This document shows, one piece after another, positions 1 to 30,676 of a stretch of 36,238 nucleotides of DNA; position 1 is the first letter of the stretch; each line of letters starts with the position of its first letter. The notes below the pieces were generated by a model, which saw only the letters and a program-made list of their open reading frames with translations, searched no databases and was not told where the DNA came from. Source of the DNA: Candidatus Hydrothermarchaeota archaeon (lineage in GTDB: Archaea; Hydrothermarchaeota; Hydrothermarchaeia; Hydrothermarchaeales; CAZSVW01). The stretch spans positions 1 through 36,238 of the forward strand of contig CAZSVW010000001.1 of assembly GCA_964610485.1 (NCBI GenBank). The letters run 5' to 3'. Position numbers and translations under genes: made by a program.

Positions 1-207
1 GGATGTCATCCGGGAGACTGTCACTACATCTCCGGAAATAATTACATGGCTAAGAGGGAGAAGAAAATAAGAAAGATGCTGGAAAAGAAAGGAATAGAAC
101 AAGAGAGGTTTAGGCTGGATTGGATATCTGCAGCTGAAGGAGCAAGATTTCAGAAGATAGTCAAAGAATTGACGGAGACCCTTAAAAGATTGAACTCCAA
201 AAAATGA
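1..207 (+). CDS. mvhD: MvhD-type iron-sulfur subunit (Mvh hydrogenase / Hdr-associated delta subunit); C-terminal fragment cut by the window edge
   Basis: Frame 1 reads GCHPGDCHYISGNNYMAKRE...RFRLDWISAAEGARFQKIV...NSKK*. The GCHxGDCHY..GN and W(I/V)SAAEG blocks are the conserved C-terminus of MvhD/FlpD-like proteins. Stop TGA 205-207 overlaps the next ATG (ATGA). Confidence 0.6.
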   Translation, partial: GCHPGDCHYISGNNYMAKREKKIRKMLEKKGIEQERFRLDWISAAEGARFQKIVKELTETLKRLNSKK

Positions 208-1232
208 GATATGACGTTGCCATAGTAGGTGCAGGTCCTAGTGGAGCATCCACGGCAAAACACTGTGCAGAGAAAGGGTTAAAAGTCATAATAATTGAAA
301 AAAAAGTTCAACTGGGATATCCATCCCACTGTGCTGGATACATACCAAAACTTGTTTCGAGGTATTTTAGGATACCAAGAGCATGTGTTCAGCAAAAAAT
401 AAAGAGGATGGCAACTTTTTTTCCGAGTGGAAAAATAAAATTTACCTCTATGCATGGTTTTATTGTAGATAGGAGTCTTTTTGATAAGTTTTTATGTCTT
501 CAAGCACTAGATGCAGGCGCAGAGATAGTTGTCGGGGGATCTGTAATCGCATTGAAAGAAAAGACGCTCAAAGTGATGGTTAAAAATAAAAAAATAGACA
601 TAAAGGCAGATTTTATAGTAGGAGCTGATGGAGCATTATCCAAGGTAGCTCGGTGGATGGGATTTAACAGGCCTAATTTGATTAAATGCGCCCAATATGA
701 GGTTCATAATATAACGGGTATAGAAGAAGAAACAGCAGAAACATATTTTGACCTAAATTTGACTAAGGCATATGCATGGATATACCCCTGTGGCAATTCC
801 TCAGCAAAAGTGGGAATCGGAACCATAAATGAAAATCCAGAAAAAAAATTGAATCTATTCATGAAGATTGTTCCTAAATTAAGAAATACAAATGTTTATT
901 CTATCTATTCTGGATTTATCCCAATAAGAAAATCTTTAGCTCTGGGTAAAAAGCATGTTCTCCTCGTTGGAGATGCCGCTGGAGTTACGGATGCCATTTC
1001 CGGGGCGGGAATTCTTTCGGGAATAATAAGTGGAAAGGCTGCAAGCAAAGCCATAGCTATGAATGATATTGAAGTCTACCATAAATCTATCAAAAAGATA
1101 CTAGGTAAAAGATTAAAAAGAGCATTATTAAAGAGGGAAAAATTAAATCGCCTTAAAAGCAATAGTGAACTAGAAAAAGAACTCCCAAAACTTTGGATTG
1201 CCTTTAAAGATTATTGGAGGAATGAAAAATGA
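204..1232 (+). CDS. Geranylgeranyl-reductase-family FAD-dependent oxidoreductase (LipT-like by context)
   Basis: N-terminal Rossmann motif DVAIVGAGPSGAS..EKGLKVIIIEKK, then GADGALS and LVGDAAG motifs typical of GGR/FixC-type flavoproteins. ATGA-coupled to both neighbours. Confidence 0.75.
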   Translation: MRYDVAIVGAGPSGASTAKHCAEKGLKVIIIEKKVQLGYPSHCAGYIPKLVSRYFRIPRACVQQKIKRMATFFPSGKIKFTSMHGFIVDRSLFDKFLCLQALDAGAEIVVGGSVIALKEKTLKVMVKNKKIDIKADFIVGADGALSKVARWMGFNRPNLIKCAQYEVHNITGIEEETAETYFDLNLTKAYAWIYPCGNSSAKVGIGTINENPEKKLNLFMKIVPKLRNTNVYSIYSGFIPIRKSLALGKKHVLLVGDAAGVTDAISGAGILSGIISGKAASKAIAMNDIEVYHKSIKKILGKRLKRALLKREKLNRLKSNSELEKELPKLWIAFKDYWRNEK

Positions 1233-1975
1233 GGAGGATGAGATTCATAGACCTTGGATACGTAAGTCTACCTATGCTTCACGCCATAGAGGAAGCTATA
1301 GCAATGAAGGGTGTACCCACATTTATGCTATGGATAGCTTCTCCTCCTACGGTGAGTCTTGGATATTTCCAGAGCGTGGAGGAGGAAGTAGATGTAGAAA
1401 TGTGTAAAGAGCTTGGGATAGAGATAAGTAGGAGGCCTTCTGGAGGAGGGGCAGCTTATTTTGATGAGAGAGAGCTCTACTACTCTATTGTAGCAAAGCA
1501 TGAGAGTGGGATTTTGCCAAAAGAACCAATTGCATGTTTTAGAAAAGCGGGAGAGGGGCTTATAAATGCCTTGAAGTTTTTTGAACTAGAAGGAACTTTG
1601 ACTGGAGTAAATGATATTCAAGTCCTCGGAAAAAAAATATCCGGAAACGCACAAACCACGATGCACGATGCTAAAATTCAGCATGGCACTTTTTTAGTAG
1701 ACTTTGACATGGAAACAATGCTAAAAGTTTTAAAAATACCCAAAGAAAAAATATCAGATAAAGGTATAAAATTTGTTGAAGAGAGGATTATAACTCTAAA
1801 AAAAGCTCTAAAAAGGGAGGTAAGTATAGAAGAAGCAAAAAAAGCTTTGATCATGGGCTTTAAAGAAGCATTAAATGTTAAATTTTATAACTCAGAGTTA
1901 AGCACGGACGAAAGAAAAATTGCCAATGAGATTGTAAAAAAATACATGAGTAAAGAATGGATATTCAAAAGATAA
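1229..1975 (+). CDS. lplA: Lipoate-protein ligase A, catalytic (BPL/LPL) domain only
   Basis: RRPSGGGAAYFDE (the RRxSGGGAVYHD-like motif) and GKKISGNAQ (lipoyl-AMP lysine motif). It ends ...SKEWIFKR*, where fused LplA proteins continue into the C-terminal domain. Confidence 0.85.
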   Translation: MRRMRFIDLGYVSLPMLHAIEEAIAMKGVPTFMLWIASPPTVSLGYFQSVEEEVDVEMCKELGIEISRRPSGGGAAYFDERELYYSIVAKHESGILPKEPIACFRKAGEGLINALKFFELEGTLTGVNDIQVLGKKISGNAQTTMHDAKIQHGTFLVDFDMETMLKVLKIPKEKISDKGIKFVEERIITLKKALKREVSIEEAKKALIMGFKEALNVKFYNSELSTDERKIANEIVKKYMSKEWIFKR

Positions 1976-2241
1976 TGAAAAAGTCTATCTATAAAGCCAA
2001 GGGAGGGCTGATAAGGATAAAGATCAAGGGAGAAGATAAAATAGAAAAGATAGTAATTACTGGAGATTTCTTCTTTTATCCAGAAAATGAACTAGAAAAC
2101 TTAGAAAAATATCTTATTGGGACTAAAATTTCAGAGGAAGAGGTATATAAATCAATAAAAAAATTTTATAAAGAAAAAAATATAGAATCTCCAGGATTAA
2201 ATCCAGAAGACCTAACAAAAGCCATAATACTAACAAAATGA
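1957..2241 (+). CDS. lplB: Lipoate-protein ligase accessory (C-terminal) domain protein, LplB-type
   Basis: KAKGGLIRIKIKGEDKIEKIVITGDFFFYPE matches the LplA C-terminal domain signature (G.i.v.l....I....i.GDFF). The more likely start is ATG 1975, which overlaps the lplA stop as TAATG. Confidence 0.75.
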   Translation: MDIQKIMKKSIYKAKGGLIRIKIKGEDKIEKIVITGDFFFYPENELENLEKYLIGTKISEEEVYKSIKKFYKEKNIESPGLNPEDLTKAIILTK

Positions 2242-3092
2242 GAGAAATTATATTTTATTTTACAGGAAAAAATTTTCCTCCAATCTCCATAACTGGAAAA
2301 AAATGTGCACTAAATTGTAAACACTGTGGTCGTAGAATGCTTGAAAATCTATATTACGCCACTACCAACGAGGAGTTGGTTAATTTAGCATTGAAATTTG
2401 AAAAGAAAAAGGCAAAAGGTATATTATTAACCGGAGGATGCAACTCATCGGGGAAGGTTCCTATTACAAAATTTGCAAAAGCTATAGAAAAGATAAAAAA
2501 AGAAACAAACCTAATTTTACTTGCACATACGGGTATAATAAACTTTGAAGAAGCCAAAATATTGAAAGAAGCTGGATTAGATGGTGTATCTCTGGATATA
2601 GTAGCAGATGAGAATGTAACCCAAAAGATATATGGCATTAGGATCCCGAAAGAAGAATATAAGAACTCTCTAATTTCTCTAAAAAAAGCAAAAATCGATA
2701 TAATATCGCCTCATATATGCGTTGGTCTCAATTTTGGAAATTTAAGCCATGAATTTGACTCATTAAAGCTTGTCTCTACTATTAAACCAAAAAATCTAAT
2801 AATAATTGCATTAATGCCGCTAAAGGGTACAGAAATGGAGAACGTAAATGTCAACCCAAGAGATGTTGCTATGGTATTCAAAGAGGCAAAAAAACTCTTA
2901 CCGAGGACTAAGATAGTATTGGGATGTGCCCATTCAACTGGGGAAAATAGAGCTAAAATTGAAGAACTTGTCCTTCCCATAGTAGATGGGATAGCTCTCC
3001 CCACCCCAAGAATTAAAAAAATTGCTCAGAAATCCAAAATGAGTATTATTGAGCAAAAAACGTGCTGCGCTATTCCGAGGTTGGAAAGATGA
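2238..3092 (+). CDS. Radical SAM protein, LipS1/LipS2-type lipoyl synthase component candidate (family A, copy 1)
   Basis: CX3CX2C motif in ISITGKKCALNCKHC. Further conserved Cys in GGC, LGC and a C-terminal CC (KTCCAIP). Paralog of 4042-4962. ATGA overlap with lplB. Confidence 0.65.
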   Translation: MREIIFYFTGKNFPPISITGKKCALNCKHCGRRMLENLYYATTNEELVNLALKFEKKKAKGILLTGGCNSSGKVPITKFAKAIEKIKKETNLILLAHTGIINFEEAKILKEAGLDGVSLDIVADENVTQKIYGIRIPKEEYKNSLISLKKAKIDIISPHICVGLNFGNLSHEFDSLKLVSTIKPKNLIIIALMPLKGTEMENVNVNPRDVAMVFKEAKKLLPRTKIVLGCAHSTGENRAKIEELVLPIVDGIALPTPRIKKIAQKSKMSIIEQKTCCAIPRLER

Positions 3093-4045
3093 AGTGGATT
3101 AGGGCATCTATAGGAACTGCAAATATGTTGGGATTAGAGAGAATCAAAATGGATGTTGAAATGAAGACCGCATATCTCCTTACATATCACAAAGGAAGAT
3201 GCAAAGCAGACTGCAAGTTCTGTGCACAAGCCAGAAACAGCAAAGCTAATATTGGTTTTATAGCCCGTGGACTATATAAGCCATATCCTTTTGGGAAAGT
3301 AGTAAATTCCCTAGTAAACTCCATCAAAGAAGGGAAAATAAAGAGGGTATGCCTCCAGACAATTAATTATGACTCACTCCATATGGACACGTTGGAGATA
3401 TGCGATACCATCCTTTCCAAAGTTGAAGTCCCCATTTCTGTGTCCAGACATCCTCTTTCTACTTCAGAGTTAAACGAACTTAAGGACATTGGTGTAGACC
3501 GTATAGTTATACCCCTAGATGCTGTAACCGAGGAGATTTTTAATAACATAAAACCTACCTACCGCTGGGAAGAACACTGGAATGGTCTTAAGAGAGCCCT
3601 AAAAATTTTTGGGCCGTGGCACGTAGGAACCCATCTGATATTGGGACTTGGAGAAACGGAAAAGGAAGCCATTGAAACGCTTCTAAAACTCCATGAACTA
3701 AAAATAAATACTGCTCTATTTGCTTTTGTGCCTATAAAGGGAACTGGATTAGAAAATCTAAAAAGACCAAAAATCTCAAGTTACAGGAGAATACAGCTGT
3801 CGTACTATCTAATAAAAATGGGAATAAACAAATTCTACTTCAAAGATGAAAAGATAATATTTGACCACGATGAAATACTGGATAAAATAATAGAAAGTGG
3901 AGAGCCGTTTCTAGCTACCGGTTGCCCAGACTGCAATAGACCCTACTCCACAGAGAGACCATCATCCACGCCATATAATTTCCCCACTCTCCCCTCAAAA
4001 GAAGAAATAGAGAAGATCAAAATAGAAATTGGTGACTACAGTTGA
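3062..4045 (+). CDS. Radical SAM protein, BioB-like, LipS1/LipS2-type lipoyl synthase component candidate (family B)
   Basis: CKADCKFCAQ (CX3CX2C, BioB-like) and a C-terminal TGCPDCNRPY Cys pair. The likely true start is ATG 3089 (MKWIRAS...), overlapping the upstream stop as ATGA. Confidence 0.65.
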   Translation: MLRYSEVGKMKWIRASIGTANMLGLERIKMDVEMKTAYLLTYHKGRCKADCKFCAQARNSKANIGFIARGLYKPYPFGKVVNSLVNSIKEGKIKRVCLQTINYDSLHMDTLEICDTILSKVEVPISVSRHPLSTSELNELKDIGVDRIVIPLDAVTEEIFNNIKPTYRWEEHWNGLKRALKIFGPWHVGTHLILGLGETEKEAIETLLKLHELKINTALFAFVPIKGTGLENLKRPKISSYRRIQLSYYLIKMGINKFYFKDEKIIFDHDEILDKIIESGEPFLATGCPDCNRPYSTERPSSTPYNFPTLPSKEEIEKIKIEIGDYS

Positions 4046-4962
4046 ATTATTCTGAAGCTAAAAAACTATTTGAAAAACCATTAGAAAAACTATTTTCAGA
4101 AGCTAGAAGCATATCTGATAAAAAAATAACATTCTATAAAAACGCCTTTGTTCCTATTTCTATTACTGGTGAAAAATGCGAGCTTAACTGTAAACATTGC
4201 TCTAAAATATATCTAAAACATATGCTAAAGGCTGAAAACCAAAAAAGTTTAATTAATCTATGCCTAAAACTTCAGAATCTAGGGAATAGAGGAATAGTTC
4301 TAAGCGGAGGATGTACAAAGGAAGGTATAGTACCCTTGCACAAATTTTCGAATGCCATAAGGAGAATAAAAGAGGAAACCTCCCTAATAACACTCGCACA
4401 TACGGGAGTAGTAGATTACAATAAAGCTAAATTACTGGGAGAAGCGGGATTAGATGGTGCTCTTGTTGATGTGGTCGGCAGCTCGTTGACTACAAAAGAA
4501 ATTTTTGGCATAGAAATATGCCCTAATCAGTATGTAAAAACGCTCAAGGCACTAAATGCGAGTAAGATAAGGAAAATATCCCCCCACATAATTGTTGGTT
4601 TACATTATGGGAAAATAAGAGGGGAAATAAAAGCTCTTTCTTTGCTTAAAAATACTAGGCTTGACACGATCGTTATAGTAGTACTTATTCCAACCAAGGC
4701 AACGCCTCTAGAGAATATAAAGCCTCCTTCACCCGAAGATGTAGGTAGAATAGTGGCAATAGCAAAGCTCATGTATCCCGATATCCATATTTCTCTAGGA
4801 TGCGTTAGACCGGGAGGCATTTATAGAGGAAAAATTGATGAATTTGCGATCAAGGCAGGGGCATCCAAAGTAGCCATACCTTCAACAAAAGCAAAACTTG
4901 TAGCAAAAGAGCTTGGGTTGAAAATAAAGGAATACGAACAGATGTGCTGTGGGTGGATATGA
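4042..4962 (+). CDS. Radical SAM protein, LipS1/LipS2-type candidate (family A, copy 2)
   Basis: ISITGEKCELNCKHC, GGC, LAHTG, EAGLDG, SPHIIVGL, LGC and a C-terminal MCCGWI. These blocks are collinear with 2238-3092. The TTG start overlaps the upstream TGA (TTGA); no in-frame ATG lies before the Cys motif. Confidence 0.65.
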   Translation: MNYSEAKKLFEKPLEKLFSEARSISDKKITFYKNAFVPISITGEKCELNCKHCSKIYLKHMLKAENQKSLINLCLKLQNLGNRGIVLSGGCTKEGIVPLHKFSNAIRRIKEETSLITLAHTGVVDYNKAKLLGEAGLDGALVDVVGSSLTTKEIFGIEICPNQYVKTLKALNASKIRKISPHIIVGLHYGKIRGEIKALSLLKNTRLDTIVIVVLIPTKATPLENIKPPSPEDVGRIVAIAKLMYPDIHISLGCVRPGGIYRGKIDEFAIKAGASKVAIPSTKAKLVAKELGLKIKEYEQMCCGWI

Positions 4963-5730
4963 ATGGAGATAGCAAAAGCTTGTGGTATATCTATTCATGC
5001 TCCAGAACGAGCAAAGATAACTTTTTTCAATAGTCCCTATCCTGCCCATAAAGAAAAGAAGGCAGTAGACATATATTTTGAAGGTGATATAGCACTCAGC
5101 CCAATTGAGGGTAAAGTCGAAAAAATAAGGAGATTCGAGATATCTAAACCTATCAGATTATTTAATGTAATGGATAGGGATGCATTCGATATAGAATCTG
5201 AAAAATATGAATATGCAACAATTATAAGGAGCTCTGAAAATCCAAAAAAAGTCATAAAAATTATCCATATGGAGCCCTATGTAAGCGAAGGGGAAAAAAT
5301 AGATATATTTCAGGAAATTGGAAGACTGATAGTAAGCAAATTCTTCACTTTCTGGACGGGAAAACATATCCATGTAGAGGTTAGGAATCATAATGACTAT
5401 TTTAGAGCCAGAGGAGGAGAGGAACTGGAAATTACTGGAAAATTTAAAGGAGCACATGTTGAAGTAGGGGACAAAATTGCTATAATAGACGGAGGCATAC
5501 CATACAATACCTACGGGGGGATTCTGTCTTCAGCTGAGAAAGGAACCAAAGTTAAAATAGGAGGATTCAATATAGGTAGAGTTATAAGAAGCTATAAAGA
5601 TGCCTCAATATTCAAGTGTAACCAATTTCGTATAAGGCTTAACAAAATCGAATATAGAGGAATATCTTTCGTATTAAATGGAAAAGCAAAGCTTATACCA
5701 AAGAGGAGATGTGATATTGAAATTACCTGA
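4963..5730 (+). CDS. Hypothetical protein with degenerate LytM/M23-like (duplicated hybrid motif) signature
   Basis: The ATG directly follows the upstream TGA. Motif series AVDIYFEGDIALSPIEGKVEKI ... IKIIHMEPYVSEGEKIDIFQEIG ... GKHIHVEV resembles M23 blocks (xGxDI..G.pv.a...G.V / H...V..G..V..G..IG / HLHFE). The first metal-ligand His position is a Lys. Confidence 0.5.
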   Translation: MEIAKACGISIHAPERAKITFFNSPYPAHKEKKAVDIYFEGDIALSPIEGKVEKIRRFEISKPIRLFNVMDRDAFDIESEKYEYATIIRSSENPKKVIKIIHMEPYVSEGEKIDIFQEIGRLIVSKFFTFWTGKHIHVEVRNHNDYFRARGGEELEITGKFKGAHVEVGDKIAIIDGGIPYNTYGGILSSAEKGTKVKIGGFNIGRVIRSYKDASIFKCNQFRIRLNKIEYRGISFVLNGKAKLIPKRRCDIEIT

Positions 5731-6292
5731 ACCGAGATTCAGGGGAAAAGTGTCTGTAGAAGAGGCTTTACTTAATCGGAGATCTGTCAGAGAATACTCT
5801 AAAGATAAACTTACAATGCAAGAGATTTCTCAGATATTATGGGCATCACAAGGGATCACGCAAAAAAAATGGAGATTGAGGACAGTTCCCTCAGCAGGAG
5901 CCTTATATCCTATTGAAGTTTACGCTGTTCTTGAGGAAGGTGTATTTCACTATAGACCATATGAACACTCCCTTAAGCTTATTAAAAGAGGAGATGTCAG
6001 ATGTGAGCTCTGCGAAGCTTGTTTAAACCAAGAATATGTTAGAAATGCACCTCTAGTGCTTGTATTTACCGGGGTTTTTAATAGAACTTGCAGAAAGTAT
6101 GGAGAGAGAGGTATCAGATACGTATTAATAGAAGTGGGACATGCCTCACAGAATGTATATCTTCAGTGTGAGTCCTTGGGATTAGGTACTGTGGCCATTG
6201 GAGCCTTCTATGATTCAGAAGTTAAAAAAATTCTGGACTTACCTAAGGAGCATGAACCTCTCTATGTTATGCCCGTTGGTCGCAAAAAATGA
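5678..6292 (+). CDS. SagB/ThcOx-type nitroreductase-family dehydrogenase
   Basis: NRRSVREY...LRTVPSAGALYPIEVY...FHYRP..HSL...RKYGERGIRYVLIEVGHASQNVYL...LGLGTVAIGAFYD. This is the canonical stand-alone SagB-type domain pattern. An alternative GTG start lies at 5711. Confidence 0.8.
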   Translation: MEKQSLYQRGDVILKLPEPRFRGKVSVEEALLNRRSVREYSKDKLTMQEISQILWASQGITQKKWRLRTVPSAGALYPIEVYAVLEEGVFHYRPYEHSLKLIKRGDVRCELCEACLNQEYVRNAPLVLVFTGVFNRTCRKYGERGIRYVLIEVGHASQNVYLQCESLGLGTVAIGAFYDSEVKKILDLPKEHEPLYVMPVGRKK

Positions 6293-7317
6293 AATGCGAA
6301 ATATGTGGGAAAAATAATGTAAGTGCTATTTTAGGTGTATGTTCGGACTGTATAAGGGAGGAGTGGGATAGAACAAAATTTTTTGTAGAAAAAGCTCATC
6401 ACATAAGTAGAAAGAAATTCAACTTGCCTCCAAAACCACCAAAGAAAGGTGTAGAGTGTAATCTATGTATTCATCACTGTAAAATATCGGAGGGTGAAAG
6501 AGGCTACTGCGGTATTAGAACGAATATAAAGGGAAAGCTGGTACATCTTGCAGGAACTCCGAGCAGAGGGATTGCAGAATGGTATTTTGATCCATTACCA
6601 ACGAATTGTGTGGCATCTTGGTGTTGTCCAGCTCGTGATAAATTCTCCCCGCTTAAAAATCTCGCAGTATTTTATGGTGCTTGTACCTTTAACTGTCTCT
6701 ACTGCCAGAACTGGACATTTAAAGAGAACACTATGCTTCTCTCTCCTACAATCTCCGCAAAAAAACTTGCTAGTAATATAGACGAATACACCTACTGCAT
6801 ATGTTACTTCGGAGGAGACCCTACACCCCAAGTTGCCCATGCTCTGAAAGTCTCAAAGCTTGCAACCGAAGTAAAAGATATAAAAATATGCTGGGAAACG
6901 AATGGAAGTATGAATAGTAGAATTCTAAAAAAGGTAGCAGAAACCTCGATAGAAAGCGGGGGAACTATAAAGATCGACATAAAAGCTTGGAATGATAATT
7001 TGCATAGAGCTCTAACCGGGGTAACAAATGCTCAAACACTCAAAAACATAGAGTATCTCGGGAAAATTGCCCCCGAAATCATTGTAGCAAGTACGGTACT
7101 TCTTCCATATTATATAGACCGTGAGGAAATAGAAAATATTGCTCGTTTCCTTTCTAGTATTGATGAAAATATACCGTATTCATTGCTAGCCTTTTATCCA
7201 ACGTTCTACATGAGGGATTTGCCGACTACATCCAAAAAACATGCTCTAGAATGCTACCATATAGCTAAAAAATATCTCAAAAATGTTAGATTAGGCAATG
7301 TACATTTACTCCACTGA
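6289..7317 (+). CDS. Radical SAM enzyme, PflA-activase / AmrS-like, with N-terminal zinc ribbon
   Basis: N-terminal CEICG...CSDC, then CNLCIHHCKISEGERGYCGIR, then the radical SAM motif GACTFNCLYCQNW. ATGA overlap with the nitroreductase gene. Confidence 0.8.
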   Translation: MKCEICGKNNVSAILGVCSDCIREEWDRTKFFVEKAHHISRKKFNLPPKPPKKGVECNLCIHHCKISEGERGYCGIRTNIKGKLVHLAGTPSRGIAEWYFDPLPTNCVASWCCPARDKFSPLKNLAVFYGACTFNCLYCQNWTFKENTMLLSPTISAKKLASNIDEYTYCICYFGGDPTPQVAHALKVSKLATEVKDIKICWETNGSMNSRILKKVAETSIESGGTIKIDIKAWNDNLHRALTGVTNAQTLKNIEYLGKIAPEIIVASTVLLPYYIDREEIENIARFLSSIDENIPYSLLAFYPTFYMRDLPTTSKKHALECYHIAKKYLKNVRLGNVHLLH

Positions 7318-7362
7318 TGTTTTCACAATTTTTAATAAAATGTTAAACTACTCTTCTTTGGA

Positions 7363-7641
7363 ATGATGTATAGTAGAGTACATGTATATATATCTGGAAA
7401 AGTCCAAGGAGTTTTCTTTAGAGAATATACAAGAAGGAAGGCAAAAAATCTGGGGATAAAAGGATGGGTGAGAAATTTACCCGATGGAAGAGTTGAAGCT
7501 ATATTTGAAGGTGAAAAAGAGAAAATAAAAGAGATGATAGAGTGGTGCCATACCGGTTCACCTTATTCTAAGGTTGAAAAAGTAGAGGTAACCGAAGAAG
7601 AGTATAAGGGAGAATTCGAGGATTTTGAGATAAGGTGGTAA
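7363..7641 (+). CDS. acyP: Acylphosphatase
   Basis: ISGKVQGVFFR and GWVRNLPDGRVEA signatures; about 90 aa. Confidence 0.9.
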   Translation: MMYSRVHVYISGKVQGVFFREYTRRKAKNLGIKGWVRNLPDGRVEAIFEGEKEKIKEMIEWCHTGSPYSKVEKVEVTEEEYKGEFEDFEIRW

Positions 7642-7642
7642 A

Positions 7643-8143
7643 ATGAGAATAAGCCTAAGAATAGAACTGAAAGACAAACCTGGCCAGTTAATAAAAGCTA
7701 TAGAGCCTATTTCCAAATACGGGGGGAATATAGTCAGCATAGTTCATGTTAGGGAGGAAACTCGAGGGGAACGTGTTCCCGTGCACCTGATATTTACTAT
7801 AGAGGATAGAAAGTCCCTTGAAAAAATTTTAGACGAACTTGAGAGGAGAGACGTACTGATATCAAAAATAGGAGAGGAGAAGAAGAAGGAAGTCATATCA
7901 ATGGTCTTAATCGGACATATAGTAGATAGCGACCTTAAGGATACCTTGGACAGAATAAATTCAACGGGTGCAAAAGTGGTTGACCTAGACTTAATAATGC
8001 CCCATCCAGAAAAGGAATCCTCTGCCAAGTTAGGAGTAGAAGTATACGGAGAAGAACAAAAAGAGATTGTACTTAAGGTTGTAGATGAGGTAGCCAGAGA
8101 AAAAGATTTCTTAGTAATTAGGGCACTGGAGGTTTTGCGGTGA
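7643..8143 (+). CDS. ACT-domain amino-acid-binding protein
   Basis: L.IELKDKPGQLIKAIEPISKYGGNIVSI is an ACT-like beta-alpha-beta start. The gene sits immediately upstream of hom and is GTGA-coupled to it. Confidence 0.7.
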   Translation: MRISLRIELKDKPGQLIKAIEPISKYGGNIVSIVHVREETRGERVPVHLIFTIEDRKSLEKILDELERRDVLISKIGEEKKKEVISMVLIGHIVDSDLKDTLDRINSTGAKVVDLDLIMPHPEKESSAKLGVEVYGEEQKEIVLKVVDEVAREKDFLVIRALEVLR

Positions 8144-11635: not shown

Positions 11636-12106
11636 ATGAAAATAATGTTCCTCAAATGTAAAAAACCCATCGAGAAAGAAATTATAAAAAAATACAAAAA
11701 TATCCAAATTATAGACTCCAGAAATTTAGCAGGGGAAGAGCATCTGAAATATGCGATTTTACATGCGAAAAAAGCTTTTAGAAGAGGTAAAAACATAAGC
11801 AATAACTTACTGGTAGAAGTTGTAGTTAGAGCCTCCTGCCAAAGACAGATAAGAAAAGCTCTCCAAATCTTTGGTATAAGGGAAAATTCAAGAGAAGTGG
11901 CGGTCTTTGGAGACCGAATACCTATTGAAATCTTTAGCGTATATAAGTGCAATAAGACAAAACCCAGCTTAAATAAGGAAAAGATTGAAAAGATAAAAAA
12001 AGTATTCAAGATTACTGATGAAGAAATTAGGGCTACTAGAAAGAGAGAAAATGACGCAATTATCGAGATAATAAAAGAGAGGATAGCTCTCATCGAAATA
12101 GAATGA
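11636..12106 (+). CDS. cgi121: KEOPS complex subunit Cgi121
   Basis: EVVVRASCQRQIRKALQIFG and the C-terminal ERIALIEIE closely parallel archaeal Cgi121 (ILVRASGQRQI..AI...G ... EKIALIEL). About 155 aa. Confidence 0.8.
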   Translation: MKIMFLKCKKPIEKEIIKKYKNIQIIDSRNLAGEEHLKYAILHAKKAFRRGKNISNNLLVEVVVRASCQRQIRKALQIFGIRENSREVAVFGDRIPIEIFSVYKCNKTKPSLNKEKIEKIKKVFKITDEEIRATRKRENDAIIEIIKERIALIEIE

Positions 12107-12143
12107 CAAGGTTTATCTATCCATTAGTGCAAAATCTGAAACT

Positions 12144-12893
12144 ATGGATTTTAACTTAAGTGCATATCTCCCACGAAATTATGGATATGGTATTAGTATT
12201 TACTATTATTATATTCCTCTTGCTCTTTTTTTTCTTATATTACTGTTGTTAGTTATTAAGAGCAAGAGGAGAAAAGAAAAAATATCAGATTCTTCGCTTT
12301 TAAAAAAAGAAAAGGAAAAAGAGGACCTACTTGACAATTTAAGAAAACTAAAGGAAGAAAAAATAAAATTAGAAAAAAGAATCTCAGAATTGGAGGAAAA
12401 AATAGAAGAACAAAAAGAAAAATTCAGAAAAAAAGAAGAAGAAATTATAGAAAAGGAGAAAAGATTTGAAGAATCTCTCCTTAAACAAAGTGCAATGGAA
12501 GATGAGATAAAATTTCTCCAAACAAGGATAGGAGAGCTTGAAAAAGAAAAAAATGAAATAATACAAGAATATGAAAATGAAAAAGAGAAAATAAAAAAAG
12601 AAAACGAAATTTTAATAGAATCGCTGAAAAAAGAATACGAACTTGAAATTCAGAAGATAAAATCCGATTTTGAGAATAAAATTTTAGAATATGAAAAAAA
12701 GATAGACGAAATAAAGAAGGAATGCAACGATAAAATCGCAGAGATAAAAGAAAAAACAAAAAATTCAATAAAAAAAATAATATCTGAAAAAGAAGGTATA
12801 ATAGATGATTTAAGAAAAGAAAATGAACAACTTAAGAGAAAAATAGACAAATTAAAAGAAAAAATAAGGCTTTTAGAAGTTGAACGATTATAG
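12144..12893 (+). CDS. Membrane-anchored E/K-rich coiled-coil protein (hypothetical), paralog 1
   Basis: One N-terminal hydrophobic helix (IPLALFFLILLLLVI), then about 200 aa of heptad-like E/K/L/I sequence. It shares blocks with the next ORF (RIGELEKEK / RIGKLEKEK; ECNDKIAEIKEKTKNSIKKI / KCKERIKEIKEKSKHIIEEF). Confidence 0.65.
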   Translation: MDFNLSAYLPRNYGYGISIYYYYIPLALFFLILLLLVIKSKRRKEKISDSSLLKKEKEKEDLLDNLRKLKEEKIKLEKRISELEEKIEEQKEKFRKKEEEIIEKEKRFEESLLKQSAMEDEIKFLQTRIGELEKEKNEIIQEYENEKEKIKKENEILIESLKKEYELEIQKIKSDFENKILEYEKKIDEIKKECNDKIAEIKEKTKNSIKKIISEKEGIIDDLRKENEQLKRKIDKLKEKIRLLEVERL

Positions 12894-13466
12894 GTGATCA
12901 AAATGAATAATATTTACCAATATGCAATTATATGTAGTGGAATAAGTTTAATATTGCTTTTATTTAAAATTTCTGTATATAGAAAAGAAATTAATCTATT
13001 AAAAAGAGAAATCAAAACGCTAAAAAGAGAAAAGGCTGAAGTTGAGGATAGGTACAATGAACTAGAAACGGAACTTAGAAAACTCAAAGAAAAAGAGGAA
13101 GAAATCCATAATTTGAAGAAAGAAATAGAAAAACGTCAAAAAGAACTTAAATCAGAAAAAGAAAAAATAGAGAAAGATCTAATGAGAGTTAAGGCGATAG
13201 AAGAAACCTTAGAGAGACATAGAATAAGAATAGGAAAACTTGAGAAAGAAAAAAGAGAACTAGCCGAAAAACTAGAGAAGTCGGAAGAAAAATGCAAAGA
13301 GAGAATAAAAGAAATAAAAGAAAAAAGCAAACATATTATCGAAGAATTCTCAAAAAAGAGAGATGCAGAAATTGAAAACTTGATAAAAGAGAAGAAAGAA
13401 CTAGAAAAGAAAGTCAAAGAACTAAAGGAAAGGTTATCACTATGGGAGTCCGTGAAGGATCTTTAG
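12894..13466 (+). CDS. Membrane-anchored E/K-rich coiled-coil protein (hypothetical), paralog 2
   Basis: N-terminal helix (YAIICSGISLILLLF) plus coiled coil. The likely start is ATG 12903. It directly abuts the previous stop. Confidence 0.65.
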   Translation: MIKMNNIYQYAIICSGISLILLLFKISVYRKEINLLKREIKTLKREKAEVEDRYNELETELRKLKEKEEEIHNLKKEIEKRQKELKSEKEKIEKDLMRVKAIEETLERHRIRIGKLEKEKRELAEKLEKSEEKCKERIKEIKEKSKHIIEEFSKKRDAEIENLIKEKKELEKKVKELKERLSLWESVKDL

Positions 13467-14068
13467 AAAAAATAAAAAATAGTGTAAAAAATTTGATATA
13501 CGAAGGAGAAAGACTTAAAGAGATAAAAGAAGAAGAACTACTAAGTTATTACGAAAAATGGAACTTAAAATGCATCGAACTCATAGAGAAAACATTAGGG
13601 AGAGACTCGGAACATTTAAAAGACTTCATAAATGACAAAGTAAAGGGAGAGGAGATATTAAGAAAAATTTTCTCCAAAAAACTACAAATCCTCAAAAAAT
13701 ACGGTCCCTTTTATAGAATACTAGACCATCAGCTGAGTATATTGAGAAGTATTGAGGAAAACTTGGAAACACAAATAATAGAATATAGGAAAATTCTGAC
13801 TTTAGATTTATATCTAGAAATTCTAAATAAAGCAGAATCACTTCTAGAAATGAATTTAAAGGATGTTGCAGCCATATTATGTTACTGTACCTTAGAGAAA
13901 GTTTTAAACGATGAAGAAAAGAGGAAATTTCAAAGATTTATAGAAATTGGAGAATGTGCCATCTCTGGAAAGTTCTACATGTATACCAGAGATAAGGTAC
14001 ACGACATGATAAAATTTGCCAGAGAAACCATAGAAGCTCAATTAAAAGAATACGAAAAGATTAAATAA
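13442..14068 (+). CDS. Hypothetical all-helical soluble protein
   Basis: Long ORF overlapping the previous gene by 25 nt. No transmembrane segment and no motif I recognise. Confidence 0.55.
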   Translation: MGVREGSLEKIKNSVKNLIYEGERLKEIKEEELLSYYEKWNLKCIELIEKTLGRDSEHLKDFINDKVKGEEILRKIFSKKLQILKKYGPFYRILDHQLSILRSIEENLETQIIEYRKILTLDLYLEILNKAESLLEMNLKDVAAILCYCTLEKVLNDEEKRKFQRFIEIGECAISGKFYMYTRDKVHDMIKFARETIEAQLKEYEKIK

Positions 14069-14137
14069 CTACTCATATTCTCTGCTATCCTTCAAAATTA
14101 ATGACTTGAATCATATAAATTAGCGATATCATATATC

Positions 14138-14179
14138 TTTATATATATGATAAAGTAAGATAAGTAAGAAAAAACTTAC
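14138..14179 (+). promoter_or_regulatory. Putative TATA box plus repeat/palindrome operator upstream of the AbrB-type gene
   Basis: TTTATATATAT at 14138-14148, about 47 nt before the ATG. Direct repeat AAGTAAGA x2 (GTAAG at 14155-14159 and 14164-14168). Inverted repeat GTAAG-aaaaaa-CTTAC at 14164-14179, at the expected transcription start. Confidence 0.3.
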
Positions 14180-14189
14180 ATTTAAGAAA

Positions 14190-14576
14190 ATGAAGGGAGA
14201 ATGTTCTAAGCAAAAGATTGTTTACGGAGTAGTAACGGTGAGTGAAAAGGGGCAAGTAGTTATTCCCGTTGATGCAAGAAGGGATTTGAACATTAAAACC
14301 GGAGATAAGCTAATCGTTCTTAAAAGAAAGGATGAAGCCGGATTAACGCTTATCAAACTTGATAAAATGGATGAGCTCATGTTTCTCATCCAAGAAGATG
14401 AAAAATTCTTTGAAAGATTAAAGGGAGGTGATAAAATAATGAAATATACTTGCAAAGACTGTAAATATTACAAGCCAATAGACGAAACAAAGGGAGACTG
14501 CTTTGGACACGAAGTTCCTGCAGATATGCCAGTAGAGAAATGCCCTGCGAAAGCATTTGAACCAAGGAAGGATTAA
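14190..14576 (+). CDS. AbrB/MazE/SpoVT-type DNA-binding domain fused to a C-terminal Cys-rich domain
   Basis: The N-terminus VTVSEKGQVVIPVDARRDLNIKTGDKLIVL is the SpoVT-AbrB swapped-hairpin signature. The C-terminus is MKYTCKDCKYYKPIDETKGDCFGHEVPADMPVEKCPAKAFEP (4 Cys). Internal GGAGGTGA (14424-14431) lies 7 nt before the in-frame ATG 14439. Confidence 0.75.
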   Translation: MKGECSKQKIVYGVVTVSEKGQVVIPVDARRDLNIKTGDKLIVLKRKDEAGLTLIKLDKMDELMFLIQEDEKFFERLKGGDKIMKYTCKDCKYYKPIDETKGDCFGHEVPADMPVEKCPAKAFEPRKD

Positions 14577-14607
14577 ATAATGGAAGAGTATCCAAAATTC
14601 TTCGTCG

Positions 14608-14640
14608 TTTTTCAAAATTTGTTTTTTATAATTTATTTTT
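14608..14640 (+). terminator. Oligo-T cluster, candidate archaeal terminator
   Basis: T5 (14608-14612), T6 (14622-14627) and T5 (14636-14640), 30-65 nt after the stop at 14576. Confidence 0.3.
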
Positions 14641-14658
14641 GGGTTAGCAATTTACGGA

Positions 14659-15027
14659 ATGCTAAAGTTTAGGTTAATTTCATTGTTTTATTTGCTCTTC
14701 ATTATTGTAATGCTGGGTTTAGTCTTAAGGAAGCATCTATGCACGAATTGCTATTACTACAATAAGCGATGTAACACTGGCTGGGGAATTCTGGCTAAAT
14801 TTTTATATGAGGAAAAATCTGGAGATTTTGAACTTGGATTAAAGCTTGCAAAATTCACTTGGGCTGCTATAACCATCTTCCCAATTATTATAATGGGAGT
14901 GGAAGTCCATTTTAATATGCTGAATCCCGTGATACTTGGTATTTTTGTAATTTTGAGCGGTTTTAATTTTTTAATTCATTCTTACGCTTGTAAGACATGT
15001 AAAATGAAGGAGAAGTGCTATGGTTAA
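14659..15027 (+). CDS. Small integral membrane protein with terminal Cys motifs (hypothetical)
   Basis: About 3-4 hydrophobic helices. [11 protein letters not shown] after helix 1 and [10 protein letters not shown] at the C-terminus. Overlaps the next gene by 8 nt. Confidence 0.55.
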
Positions 15028-15873
15028 GGAAATTTATGTTAAATCTATTTTGAATAGACACAAAACTCGCGACTCATGGTTTCTGGACGATTATTCTTTA
15101 AATCCCTATAAGCTATGCCAGTTCAACTGCATTTACTGCTATATCCATGGTAGCAAATATGGTAAAAATGTTAAAGAGTTTGCGGTTAAGATTAATGCTC
15201 CAAGGTTATTAAGAAAAGAGCTTGCAAAGCTACAAAAAGCAAAAAGTATGGCTTTATTGCCCTAAGCTCTGCTACAGAACCCTGGCAAAATATCGAAGAA
15301 AAATATTGCATAACGAGGAAATGCCTCGAGATCATTGCCAATTTCAAATTTCCTGTTCATTGTCTTACGAAGTCAAAGCTCATTTTAAGAGACTTGGACT
15401 TGCTAAGAAAAATCGATGAAAATGCTATTTTACCAAAAGATTTGGCCACGCTAAAGAATGGTTGCTTAATAACCATTTCTATCTCAACCTTAGATGAGGA
15501 AATAGCAAAAATTTTTGAGCCAAACGCTCCAAGACCAAAAGAAAGATTGGAAGTTTTATATAAGCTTAGAGAAGAAGGATTTTTTGCTGGTGTAGCTTAT
15601 ATTCCTGTTTTGCCTTTTATCTCCGATAGCAAGGAAGAGCTTGAGGAAATGATAAGCAAGGCAAAGGAATACGACGCGAGCTATGTTTTTGTGGGAGCTT
15701 TAACCCTCTATGGTGAAGGTAAAGAACTTTACTATAAAGCTATAAAAAAGCATTTTCCTGAGTTATTGCCAAAATATGAGCGTTTTAGGTTTAAAGGTTA
15801 TCAAAAGAAGCTTGAAGAAAGGGCAAAGAAGATTTGCAGGGATATTAATATTAATTACAAAATTCAAAATTAA
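15020..15873 (+). pseudogene. SplB-like (DNA-photolyase-like, COG1533-type) radical SAM gene interrupted by one frameshift
   Basis: The first frame gives ...[13 protein letters not shown]...[12 protein letters not shown], then a stop at 15263. The frame beginning 15247 continues [59 protein letters not shown]... to 15873. This is collinear with the family. The junction is in CAAAAAGCAAAAAGT (15233-15247). Confidence 0.7.
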
Positions 15874-17687: not shown

Positions 17688-19577
17688 ATGAAAGTAGGGG
17701 TTTTTCTCTGTACATGTAATGATACTTGCAACATGGATTTCAAAAAAATTAAGAAAGCTATAGAGAGAGAAGTCGAATTTGTTGAAATTCACCGTCAATT
17801 TTGCCAAAAGGATGGATTGGCATACCTGATAGATGGGATAAGGAGAAAGAAACTCGACACCTTGGTTATAACTTGCGATTTAAAACAGGATTTCTTTGAG
17901 GATTTAAACCTAGGGGAGGTAATTACGCTTAACATTAGAGAGCTATGTGGATGGGTTCACAGCAAAAAAGATGCTACCGAAAAGGCTATTTCAATGATAA
18001 AAGAGCGATTATTTATGATAAATGTAGAGAAACCAAAGAGAATAATAAAAGAAACAGGAAACAGGGTACTAATAATAGGAAACTCAAAAAAATCATTTGA
18101 AATAGCAGATGGACTTAAAAATTTTGCAGAAGTAACGTTATTTGTAGATAAAACGCCAGAAATTGAAATCCCCAATGTTAAAACAATTTTTGGAAGTATA
18201 ACCCAAATCAACAGGAGGAGCATAAGATATAGGCCAAACCCTATAGATGAGAAAATTTGCATATTATGCGGTGAATGCAATAAAATTTGTGAAGAGAAAG
18301 CAATAGAATTCAATAAGAGATACTTTATAACTGAAAAATGCACAAAATGTGGAAAATGCATTCAAATATGCCCAACAAATGCTATAAAGTTTGAAAGAAA
18401 CGAAAAAGAACTTAAAACAGATCACATATTAGTAGAAGATGAAATTTCTTCTCCAAAACTTTTTGATTTACTCGCCAAAATCGGAGAGGCTGAGGTCTTT
18501 AAATATATAGACGCTAACTTGGAAAATTGCCCAAGCTTCAAAAGTATGTTGGAAGGGTGCAGCCTCTGCATAGAAGCTTGCCCCAATGATGTAATATATA
18601 GGGATAAAGAAGGAATAAAGTTCGATGACCTCTATTGTACTGGATGTGGCGTTTGCTCTTCTATCTGTCCTCTCTCTCTACTGGAACTAGTGGGAGATCC
18701 CGTCATGGAAAGGTTAAAGATATTACTTGATAACAAACTAGATAAGAAGATCCTCCTTATCTCATGCGATGAAAAAAGGAAAGAACTATATAAAATTGGA
18801 AGAGAAAAAACTAGATATCCCGCATATCTTCCTCTCTTTACAAATTTAGGGAGAATATCTGAGGTAGACTTGCTAGAAGCCTTGCTTTATGGTGCAGACG
18901 GGATAATAATATGGGGTTGCGAAAAATGTTTAGAGGAACTCGACAGAACAAAAAGCTTTGAAATAGCCAATGCGATTCTCCAAAATTTCGGTTTGGAAAG
19001 CAGAATAAGAGTAGTAAAAGATTTCAAAGAAATTAAAGACATAGAATTTACCAAAATTAAACATAAAAAAATTGATCTATCAAATAAGAATAAAAGAGAA
19101 AGGCTCATCATAATAGTAAAAGAATTAATGGATCTATTTAAGAGTAAAAAATTAAAATTTACAGGTGAATATCCATTTGGGGAAGTTAAAATAGGAGAAG
19201 AGTGTACTTTCTGCGATGCTTGCATAAGCATGTGCGCAACGGATGCATTAAAGAAAGAGGGGGATAAGCTAACGTTCTCCTATCCCAAATGCATAGCATG
19301 CACGCTGTGCGAGAAGGCATGTCCAGAAAATGCAATAAAGATAGAAAAGGTCTTAGATGTAGAAAAATTGAGTAATGAGAACTACCTACCGATCTATGAG
19401 GCAGAACTAATAAAATGCAAAAAATGTGGTAAACCATTCACGAGTAAAAAAATATTGGACAAAATACTTGCATTAAAAATAGACATGGACAGAGAATTGC
19501 TCTATTACTGTGAAGATTGTAGGGCTGAGATGGCCGTTAGGAAAATGATAGAAGAAAATGCTCAGCGCAAAATATAA
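17688..19577 (+). CDS. Polyferredoxin-like Fe-S protein with MvhD/FlpD-like modules
   Basis: Five canonical CX2CX2CX3C(P) motifs (CILCGECNKIC, CTKCGKCIQICP, CTGCGVCSSICP, CTFCDACISMC, CIACTLCEKACP) plus one variant (CSLCIEACP). The MvhD-like block is ILLISCDE...LGRISEVDLLEALLYGADGIIIWGCEKC. The C-terminus has CKKCG...YYCEDC. Confidence 0.75.
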   Translation: MKVGVFLCTCNDTCNMDFKKIKKAIEREVEFVEIHRQFCQKDGLAYLIDGIRRKKLDTLVITCDLKQDFFEDLNLGEVITLNIRELCGWVHSKKDATEKAISMIKERLFMINVEKPKRIIKETGNRVLIIGNSKKSFEIADGLKNFAEVTLFVDKTPEIEIPNVKTIFGSITQINRRSIRYRPNPIDEKICILCGECNKICEEKAIEFNKRYFITEKCTKCGKCIQICPTNAIKFERNEKELKTDHILVEDEISSPKLFDLLAKIGEAEVFKYIDANLENCPSFKSMLEGCSLCIEACPNDVIYRDKEGIKFDDLYCTGCGVCSSICPLSLLELVGDPVMERLKILLDNKLDKKILLISCDEKRKELYKIGREKTRYPAYLPLFTNLGRISEVDLLEALLYGADGIIIWGCEKCLEELDRTKSFEIANAILQNFGLESRIRVVKDFKEIKDIEFTKIKHKKIDLSNKNKRERLIIIVKELMDLFKSKKLKFTGEYPFGEVKIGEECTFCDACISMCATDALKKEGDKLTFSYPKCIACTLCEKACPENAIKIEKVLDVEKLSNENYLPIYEAELIKCKKCGKPFTSKKILDKILALKIDMDRELLYYCEDCRAEMAVRKMIEENAQRKI

Positions 19578-20127
19578 AAAGCATTTTCAAAAATTTTTTG
19601 AACCTATTGCTAGGGTATTTATAAAAGTAAATCCAAACGCCATTACATTAATTGGTCTTTTGTGGAGTTTTTTCACCGTTTTAGCTTTTTATATAGAAAA
19701 TTTACGATTAGCTCTTCTTTTTCTACTATTAACTTCTTTTTGCGATGCTTTGGATGGAATGGTAGCTAGGCTCTCTGACAGGGTTACAAAATTTGGGGGA
19801 TATTTGGACTCGGTGCTAGATAGATACTCCGATGGTATGATATTTCTTGGAATAATGGTATACCTCAGAGAAAAATACTTGTTAATATTCCTTGCAATGA
19901 TGGGGAGTTTCATGGTGAGCTATACAAGGGCAAAAGCAGAAACTTGGATCGATAAGTGCGATGTAGGAGTTGCGGAAAGAGGCGAGAGATTGCTCATTTT
20001 AATAATCGCTACCATCTTAGCAAATTTTGGAATTAACATATTTATAGAGGCAATTGCCCTAATAGTGATACTCACCCATATAACTTTCATTCAGCGTATG
20101 CTCTACACGAGAAGATTCATTAAATGA
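19558..20127 (+). CDS. CDP-alcohol phosphatidyltransferase family protein (possibly archaetidylinositol-phosphate synthase type)
   Basis: DALDGMVARLSDRVTKFGGYLDSVLDRYSD fits D-G-x2-A-R-x8-G-x3-D-x3-D. The protein has multiple transmembrane helices and is about 190 aa. Confidence 0.85.
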   Translation: MLSAKYKKHFQKFFEPIARVFIKVNPNAITLIGLLWSFFTVLAFYIENLRLALLFLLLTSFCDALDGMVARLSDRVTKFGGYLDSVLDRYSDGMIFLGIMVYLREKYLLIFLAMMGSFMVSYTRAKAETWIDKCDVGVAERGERLLILIIATILANFGINIFIEAIALIVILTHITFIQRMLYTRRFIK

Positions 20128-23645: not shown

Positions 23646-23649
23646 TCAA

Positions 23650-24957: not shown

Positions 24958-25038
24958 TTTTTATCCTCTCCAATGCTCTGTTTCAAAAAGATACTTTAAT
25001 ATCTTATACATAAATTTTTTGAATGTTTTCAGAAAGGA

Positions 25039-26448: not shown

Positions 26449-26465
26449 TTCTATATCACCTCCTC

Positions 26466-30639: not shown

Positions 30640-30676
30640 GTTTATTAATCAATGTTCCCTATAAAAATAAATAAAA

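Follow-up and report, generated by a model that had tools for sequence, protein, structure and literature searches.

What do the tightly packed genes at the start of contig CAZSVW010000001.1 (GenBank assembly GCA_964610485.1) make, and on which protein? We have analysed positions 1 to 36,238 of this contig, hereafter the window, which is archaeal by its gene content (CGI-121, PAC2, PolB and a split glutamate synthase) and has a GC content of ~36%. Scans of the window for tRNA genes and Rfam families returned nothing. A preliminary description had read seven genes at 1-4962 as a complete lipoate assembly operon of a non-canonical type, with a LipT-like flavoprotein, the ligase subunits LplA and LplB, and radical S-adenosylmethionine (SAM) enzymes of the LipS1/LipS2 type. 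Gene identities, motifs, fold and synteny indicate that the region is very probably an operon that assembles the lipoyl cofactor on a protein via the LplAB-LipS1/LipS2 route, a pathway established both biochemically and genetically (PMC9585515; PMC10332631). The genes concerned are listed below (aa, amino acids; ORF, open reading frame; GGR, geranylgeranyl reductase; FAD, flavin adenine dinucleotide).

1..207, + strand: C-terminal part of an HdrA2-type gene, its last 68 codons in the window; ORF open at the 5' end (Pfam FlpD/MvhD)
204..1232, + strand: LipT-like GGR-family FAD flavoprotein, 342 aa, with ATGA coupling to lplA (TIGR02032)
1229..1975, + strand: LplA, catalytic ligase subunit, 248 aa (PF21948; TIGR00545; KISGNA motif)
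1975..2241, + strand: LplB, accessory ligase subunit, 88 aa, or 94 aa from an ATG at 1957 (NF053749; PF10437)
2238..3092, + strand: LipS1a, divergent LipS1-family radical SAM paralogue, 284 aa (NCBIfam LipS1; BLASTP to TkLipS1)
3089..4045, + strand: LipS2, predicted radical SAM sulfur insertase, 318 aa, alternative GTG start at 3062 (NCBIfam LipS2)
4042..4962, + strand: LipS1b, LipS1 paralogue nearer to TkLipS1, 306 aa, TTG start (NCBIfam LipS1)
4963..5730, + strand: DUF8155 protein, putative metallo-amidase of M23/LytM fold, 255 aa (PF26482; AlphaFold2 model; Foldseek)
5678..6292, + strand: SagB-type nitroreductase-family protein (TIGR03605; PF00881)
6289..7317, + strand: fourth radical SAM protein, PflA/AmmeMemoRadiSam-like, 342 aa, not LipS (PF04055)

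The ORFs and their junctions, read directly, overlap by ATGA at positions 204, 1229, 2238 and 3089, by TAATG at 1975 and by TTGA at 4042, which confirms the seven co-directional, overlapping genes of the preliminary description. Its domain calls (FlpD tail, GGR flavoprotein, LplA, LplB and three radical SAM proteins) likewise agreed with Pfam and NCBIfam, the Pfam matches being an FlpD tail, FAD/GGR domains, LplA-B_cat, Lip_prot_lig_C and Radical_SAM three times. The proposed end of the operon at 4962 had to be given up. The DUF8155 gene at 4963-5730 abuts the lipS1b stop with zero gap (TGA followed directly by ATG), and the genes beyond it overlap as far as 7317, by 53 nucleotides (nt) at 5678 (20 nt with the start chosen by the gene caller on L001, a metagenome contig identical to the window) and then by ATGA at 6289. 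A 45-nt AT-rich spacer (7318-7362) follows the fourth radical SAM gene.

The assignment of the three consecutive radical SAM proteins to the LipS families carries most of the argument. The 3089-4045 product matched the NCBIfam LipS2 model NF053743 over its full length (1-292/292) with 322.6 bits (cut-off 270), and that of 4042-4962 matched the full-length LipS1 model with 239.9 bits (cut-off 230). We have also compared the proteins by BLASTP with the characterised enzymes of Thermococcus kodakarensis, TkLipS1 (TK2109) and TkLipS2 (TK2248), whose sequences were taken from the supporting information of Neti et al. 2022 (PMC9585515). TkLipS2 matched 3089-4045 with 39% identity (9e-80), and TkLipS1 matched both 4042-4962 (35%, 3e-46) and 2238-3092 (32%, 8e-40). 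The preliminary description was thus right in assigning the radical SAM proteins to LipS families, with 32-39% identity to TK2109/TK2248 and E-values of 8e-40 to 9e-80, but these do not form a simple LipS1/LipS2 pair: there are two LipS1 proteins and one LipS2, in the gene order LipS1a-LipS2-LipS1b.

The residues shown by mutagenesis to be essential in the T. kodakarensis enzymes are C27/31/34, H159, C230 and C276/277 in TkLipS1, and C39/43/46, C85 and C276/279 in TkLipS2 (PMC9585515). LipS2 of the window has the equivalents of the latter at C38/42/45, C88 and C279/C282. LipS1a has C23/27/30 (Cx3Cx2C), H159, C230 and C276/277, and LipS1b has C46/50/53, C254 and C302/303 together with the aligned His. 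Across 128 aligned LipS1-family sequences the cluster ligands were kept in 125-128 of the 128, the one or two exceptions falling at the C-terminal Cys pair. LipS2 had its best match among GTDB representatives in Bathyarchaeota metagenome-assembled genomes, at only 44% identity. Near-identical proteins have been deposited as "Thermoplasmata archaeon" (RLF60049.1 and RLF60050.1, locus tags DRN25_03370/75). Together with the NCBIfam models, the BLASTP matches to the T. kodakarensis enzymes and these intact cluster ligands support the non-canonical LplA-LplB-LipS pathway proposed at the outset.

The ligase genes are in keeping with this. LplA matched PF21948 (LplA-B_cat, 1.8e-43) and, over its catalytic part, TIGR00545 (171 bits), and it carries the KISGNA lysine motif at residue 136. 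LplB scored 69.3 bits against NCBIfam NF053749 (equivalog cut-off 65) and matched PF10437 (Lip_prot_lig_C, 2.1e-09). Models of full-length LplA stayed under their cut-offs, which is what the splitting of the enzyme would predict.

A route of assembly can be proposed from these identities. LplA (catalytic) and LplB (accessory) would activate free octanoate or lipoate with ATP and attach it to the target lysine of an acceptor. LipS2 would then insert sulfur at C8, as predicted from its 39% identity to TkLipS2, by means of a SAM-derived 5'-deoxyadenosyl radical and a sacrificial auxiliary [4Fe-4S] cluster, and a LipS1 enzyme would insert sulfur at C6. LipS1b is the likelier candidate for this last step than LipS1a and, by analogy, may be the functional equivalent of TkLipS1. 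The C8-then-C6 order has been demonstrated for the T. kodakarensis enzymes only (Neti et al. 2022, PMC9585515). Reducing equivalents would probably come from the GGR-like LipT, as suggested in Tanabe et al. 2023 (PMC10332631).

Why, then, does the operon hold two LipS1 genes? LipS1a and LipS1b share 41% identity, and the matches of both span the whole of one and the same NCBIfam model. Moreover, the T. kodakarensis system requires a single LipS1, and one of the related lipoate clusters (related loci are given L numbers here), L096, has one LipS1 only. These facts would suit a LipS1a that duplicates the function of LipS1b, or that is a copy of it in decay, with the operon working as a plain LipS1/LipS2 system. 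The tree and the synteny argue against it. In a neighbour-joining tree of 134 sequences with 200 bootstraps, LipS1a fell within a clade of 43 a-type members recovered in 200/200 replicates, and LipS1b within a clade of 26 b-type members recovered in 198/200, TkLipS1 standing outside both in 198/198 informative replicates. Seven alignment columns are fixed differently between the two clades, and at five of them TkLipS1 and LipS1b share the b-type residue. By reciprocal tblastn, an a-type gene, a b-type gene and one LipS2 occur together in six loci (the window, L010, L007, L009, L013 and L098/L099), whose named members are Thermoplasmata, Bathyarchaeia (L007) and Altiarchaeales (L098). L010 has the identical order LplA-LplB-LipS1a-LipS2-LipS1b, with proteins 64-76% identical to those of the window. 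Judged from the tree, LipS1a and LipS1b are two old, anciently diverged clades. Their separation, their co-retention in six loci, the intact cluster ligands of both proteins and the differently fixed columns point to long-term co-retention rather than redundancy, so LipS1a is probably a long-retained, non-redundant paralogue and its being a spare copy is unlikely. The trees of Tanabe et al. 2023 took in only genomes with exactly one LipS1 and one LipS2 (PMC10332631); genomes with several copies were evidently seen and not analysed there. The layout of the genes varies, the Altiarchaeales locus (L098/L099, 4854-8987) having LipS2, a LipS1b-like gene, DUF8155, GcvH and LipS1a in that order, with LplA not immediately adjacent.

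The flavoprotein gene at 204-1232 lies within the cluster of lipS1, lipS2 and lpl genes, and both its position and its family fit LipT, the predicted electron donor. The only model that it passed is TIGR02032 (198.8 bits, cut-off 158.8), which describes the generic GGR superfamily. Several of its homologues are labelled digeranylgeranylglycerophospholipid reductase by the Joint Genome Institute, and most archaeal genomes with a lipT match lack lipS1/S2 (PMC10332631). It might on these grounds be an ordinary geranylgeranyl reductase, for membrane lipids or quinones, that adjoins the lipoate genes by chance. We consider this rather improbable: the protein missed every lipid-reductase equivalog cut-off by a wide margin (125.7 vs 780 and 80.2 vs 580 bits), its 342 aa fall short of the ~400-450 positions of the lipid-reductase models, it is coupled to lplA by ATGA, and a GGR-like gene also flanks the lipoate cluster of L009. 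A 46%-identical homologue, too, is recorded on a contig of the same length as that of a LipS1a homologue, and the two contigs may be one. A GGR-like protein of the sulfur oxidiser Sulfurifustis variabilis aligns with 98% of the 204-1232 product at 31% identity. L010 contains neither lipT nor hdrA2. LipT is present in 17% of LipS-containing archaea (Tanabe et al. 2023), and its donation of electrons to LipS1/LipS2 is a proposal in the literature too (PMC10332631).

The gene that abuts lipS1b encodes a member of PF26482 (DUF8155) according to precomputed Pfam matches. The family is small, its members among 1.84 billion representatives falling into 323 clusters at 50% identity, and all taxon names on them are archaeal (Bathyarchaeia, Methanomethylicia, Hermodarchaeia, Thermoproteota and Thermoplasmata). 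D36, H135, H137, E139, R141, R148 and G151 are invariant, and H29, H102 and DGG 176-178 are invariant in an alignment of 32 sequences (A1) and at least 90% conserved in one of 70 sequences (A2). The protein thus has what is predicted to be a full set of residues for metal binding and catalysis. The AlphaFold2 model is confident (mean predicted local distance difference test, pLDDT, 92.9; predicted template modelling score, pTM, 0.90). Its N-terminal ~150 residues matched lysostaphin, ShyA, Csd, EnpA and LytM in Foldseek at probability 1.0, with the PHxHxE(V)R block (H135 and H137) aligned to the M23 HxH motif and the upstream Asp to the M23 Asp. The likeness to M23/LytM zinc metallopeptidases is one of fold (template modelling score to target up to 0.64), and the DUF8155 protein differs from them in having an extra beta-rich C-terminal domain. 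M23 enzymes use an H-x3-D first motif. That of the DUF8155 protein is Hx6D, and its PF01551 score is 17.6 against a gathering threshold of 28.7, for which reason we file it as M23-like (DUF8155) and not as a member of the M23 family. The archaeal lineages with DUF8155 are not known to make murein; if they make none, the usual peptidoglycan substrate of M23 enzymes is missing there.

DUF8155 lies inside lipoate clusters in six of nine loci (the window, L007, L009, L013, L096 and L098/L099), usually beside GcvH. Among the loci reached via LipS1a, it stands between LipS2 (or LipS1b) and GcvH in L007, L009 and L098/L099, and is missing from the lipoate locus of L010; among the five reached via DUF8155 itself, it is in a lipoate cluster in two (L013 and L096). 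This distribution and the predicted fold make DUF8155 a candidate metal-dependent, amide-acting accessory enzyme that may have been recruited to lipoate assembly in some archaea. We found no papers on DUF8155, or on M23 proteins together with LipS1. In L012 (Methanomethylicia; 5727-7888 and 12678-14888), DUF8155 is found beside a thiolase/ACP_syn_III_C-type pair and ~5 kb from glycine-cleavage P-protein genes, and not with LipS genes.

Taken together, the second LipS1 and the DUF8155 protein allow a more tentative proposal, one that we regard as possible but on balance doubtful, namely that some anaerobic archaea (with Thermoplasmata, Bathyarchaeia and Altiarchaeales as named members) have an expanded lipoyl machine with two non-redundant LipS1 proteins, one LipS2, and DUF8155 acting on the N6-acyl-lysine amide. 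LipS1a and LipS1b might then work together in a hetero-complex, or they might differ in their acceptors or intermediates. DUF8155 could be a non-homologous analogue of LipL that takes octanoyl or lipoyl groups over from GcvH and passes them to further acceptors, or alternatively a new type of lipoamidase that removes misplaced or damaged acyl groups.

As to the protein that is lipoylated, Pfam searches of the ORFs of at least 90 aa taken as genes revealed no LipA, LipB, GcvH, E2 or lipoyl-domain gene in the window, tblastn with a GcvH query found no GcvH there, and inspection of the six largest intergenic gaps brought up no hidden lipoyl domain. The statement of the preliminary description that LipA, LipB and a lipoyl acceptor are absent from the window therefore stands. 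The related clusters are more informative. LipS1a, LipS2 and LipS1b are accompanied by an in-cluster, lipoylatable GcvH in L007, L009, L013 and L098/L099, and the in-cluster GcvH of related loci carries the E(T/S)IK lipoyl-lysine motif; in L007 its gene is at 13053-13499. Since GcvH is encoded in these clusters and in 79% of Thermoplasmatota (Tanabe et al. 2023, S4 table, PMC10332631), the client is most likely a GcvH encoded outside the window. Beside the lipoate clusters of L007 (15997-16841) and L013 (7981-9097), a 173-198-aa protein without Pfam match and a DUF6951 protein follow; in L007 (Bathyarchaeia) their genes lie between the lipoate cluster and hdrA-hdrC-hdrB-mvhD. These two proteins may be further conserved partners.

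Several points weigh against the reading of the region as a lipoyl assembly operon or against parts of it. LipS1a matched the NCBIfam LipS1 model over its full length with 226.2 bits, 3.8 below the cut-off of 230, and the LipS1 tree is a neighbour-joining tree only. The case for 204-1232 as LipT consists of family membership and position, and lipS1/S2 occur in only 22% of lipT-containing archaeal genomes (PMC10332631). The DUF8155 protein of the window has 255 aa vs about 295-305 aa in most family members (~30 residues are missing where the domains join, as is the C-terminal tail, with all invariant residues kept), and DUF8155 is unlinked to lipoate genes in three of the five loci reached via DUF8155 (L011, L012 and L097). 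Finally, the window holds no acceptor, so the client is deduced from related loci and from the phylum.

At the upstream end, the preliminary description had the operon begin with an MvhD-type gene. Pfam FlpD/MvhD indeed matched the ORF that ends at 207 (3.8e-21), but L001 reaches 1.8 kb further upstream, and there the ORF has at least 604 aa. It scored 813 bits (cut-off 1100) against the HdrA2 model NF040770, over positions 172-773/777, the contigs of this population lacking the first ~171 positions. This model spans the HdrA flavoprotein and ferredoxin domains and the C-terminal MvhD domain. A stand-alone MvhD gene is thereby ruled out, the tail at 1-207 being the C-terminal domain of an HdrA2-type HdrA-ferredoxin-MvhD fusion.

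Could this HdrA2-type protein work in the system, as in the sHdr-LbpA case, by passing electrons to LipT/LipS or by acting on the lipoyl disulfide of the client? The ATGA overlap of hdrA2 and lipT would suit such a function, as would the Hdr genes found a few kb from the lipoate clusters in L004, L007 and L009 and the HdrA- and HdrB-type neighbours of LipS1/LipS2 listed in the neighbourhood analysis of Neti et al. (PMC9585515). Relatives of HdrA2 were fetched with their flanks from 80 loci, one of them the contig of the same population, the others encoding proteins of 38-69% identity. Lip genes lie downstream in that contig only, and no lipoate genes were present in the fetched flanks of the other 79. 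These include the closest orthologues, in L017 and L078 (both 68%), L018 (64%) and L023 (69%); the first three have a downstream flank, and in them (64-68%) hdrA2 sits behind tandem hdrA paralogues with no lip genes after it, while the contig of L023 ends at the hdrA2 gene. The close relative L010, in turn, has the lipoate genes and no Hdr gene. With 79 HdrA2 loci lacking lip genes, and L010 lacking both hdrA2 and lipT, the hdrA2-lipT coupling is, on this comparison of neighbourhoods, specific to the lineage of the window; a conserved HdrA2-lipoate linkage is ruled out, and we hold a function of HdrA2 in lipoyl assembly to be very unlikely. An exact-pattern metagenome scan for the sequence upstream of hdrA2, in which HdrBC or a client gene was sought, found nothing. 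Four contigs from this population extend to hdrA2. Three (the window, L014 and L002/L016) break inside the gene, and even L001, the longest, does not span the whole of it. In L017 and L078 (6100-11850), the closest hdrA2 orthologues are part of tandem arrays of hdrA paralogues. The breaks are probably repeat-induced assembly breaks.

Least credible of all is that the three radical SAM proteins belong to another BioB-like family (BioB, HydE, PylB or HmdB) and that the cluster makes a different sulfur-containing or modified cofactor: all three do give weak BioB, PylB, HmdB or HydE matches, and their nearest solved structures by sequence are biotin synthases, but other-family scores of 26-79 bits (BioB 42-79 vs a cut-off of 225, PylB 26-37 vs 348, HydE 26.5 vs 254.6) contrast with LipS scores of 226-323 (cut-offs 230-270), the E-values to the biochemically characterised TkLipS1/2 are as given above, the genes are translationally coupled to LplA/LplB, and GcvH is present in orthologous clusters. 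The curated scores and the T. kodakarensis comparison rule out the BioB, HydE, PylB and HmdB identities, the BioB, HydE and PylB families being those that the preliminary description had itself named as competitors.

Downstream of DUF8155, the SagB-type protein (5678-6292) passed TIGR03605 with 149.8 bits (cut-off 78.4) and matched PF00881 (5.7e-35), and the fourth radical SAM protein (6289-7317) matched PF04055 (2e-19) and stayed below TIGR04337 (80.2 bits, cut-off 220). Neither gene had a match in the related clusters L007, L009, L010 and L013 (tblastn, E <= 1e-6, for the SagB-like gene), which rules them out as conserved partners of the lipoate genes. In L005 and L096 the SagB-like gene had only weak matches, to nitroreductase genes, at 25% identity. 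A nitroreductase gene stands two genes after DUF8155 in L096, which is too weak a sign to build on. The overlaps of the SagB-like and fourth radical SAM genes make co-transcription with the operon probable, and, with the upstream HdrA2-type gene, they are probably co-transcribed neighbours whose linkage is not conserved.

Elsewhere in the window, a radical SAM gene of the Rv2578c family (15028-15873) appears to be broken over at least two reading frames, with CQFNCIYCY in another frame from 15029 and the C-terminal part forming ORF 15394-15873 (NF038135, 80 bits). Either the gene has become a pseudogene or the sequence contains a frameshift error. The stretch 12001-14576 shows a dip in GC to 0.276 vs ~0.36 and a strong AT skew; it contains three ORFs without significant Pfam match (12144-14068) and then a MazE-like antitoxin gene (14190-14576), and it may be a foreign island. 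A second Hdr/Mvh-related gene (17688-19577) encodes a 629-aa polyferredoxin with HdrA N-terminus-like stretches and an FlpD/MvhD domain. On the minus strand, a nitrogen-assimilation block (20120-27929) encodes glutamine synthetase, an aminotransferase and the GXGXG, FMN/Fe-S and GATase subunits of a glutamate synthase of the split archaeal type, and includes an HdrB/HdrC-like CCG fusion protein (23650-24957, minus strand). Lastly, an unannotated ORF of 81 codons (30394-30676) has a TatA/E-like N-terminus, with a hydrophobic helix followed by an amphipathic stretch.

How does the operon compare with known systems? Lpl together with LipS1/S2 occurs in 17% of archaeal genomes, gene clusters being the rule, and the sLpl(AB)-LipS1/S2 pathway has been demonstrated (Tanabe et al. 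2023, PMC10332631). T. kodakarensis has an Lpl-N/Lpl-C ligase, LipS1 (TK2109) and LipS2 (TK2248) (Jin et al. 2020; Neti et al. 2022, PMC9585515). The window shares with it a bipartite ligase and a lipoyl synthase drawn from two radical SAM families, at 32-39% identity and with the essential Cys and His residues kept. It differs in having two LipS1 paralogues, with TkLipS1 in neither clade, and in its single overlapping operon, to which a LipT-like flavoprotein and an M23-like DUF8155 gene are attached.

The sHdr sulfur oxidisers Hyphomicrobium denitrificans and Thioalkalivibrio sp. K90mix have lipS1-slpl(AB)-lipT-lipS2 clusters, and the archaeal arrangement in the catalogue of Tanabe et al. 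2023 is lipS2-lplA-lplB-lipS1 (PMC10332631). Ligase, LipS1, LipS2, a GGR-like LipT and Hdr-type genes nearby are common to these clusters and the window, whereas the order in the window is lipT-lplA-lplB-lipS1a-lipS2-lipS1b. Unlike in the sulfur oxidisers, its ligase is split into LplA and LplB and not fused, sHdr, LbpA, DsrE and TusA genes are absent from the window, and its Hdr neighbour is an HdrA2-type HdrA-ferredoxin-MvhD fusion modelled in NCBIfam on methanogen heterodisulfide reductase.

A third comparison is with the LipM-GcvH-LipL relay of Bacillus subtilis. Here it is the related archaeal clusters, and not the window, that hold an LplA-catalytic-domain-only gene, GcvH and DUF8155 side by side, a layout, known from genes alone, that resembles an arrangement of ligase/transferase, carrier and amidotransferase. 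DUF8155 has the M23/LytM fold, whereas LipL has the fold of the LplA/LipB family, and the window has LplB and no GcvH. Ligases and octanoyltransferases are placed together in the tree of Tanabe et al. (PMC10332631).

The core pathway is thus already known, and the window adds an example in a phylum, Thermoplasmatota, in which LipS is rare (18 genomes vs 333 with LipA; Tanabe S4 table, PMC10332631). What may be new is the recurrent second LipS1 clade beside the first and the M23-fold protein next to GcvH and LipS. The published surveys used hidden Markov models for LipS1, LipS2, Lpl and LipT only (PMC10332631), and we found no discussion of the LipS1a/LipS1b pair or of the DUF8155 partner in the searchable literature. 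Should LipS1a and DUF8155 take part in lipoylation, three questions would become testable: how the LipS enzymes divide their substrates, by what way organisms that lack LipL bring octanoyl or lipoyl groups to acceptors besides GcvH, and whether archaea have a lipoamidase.

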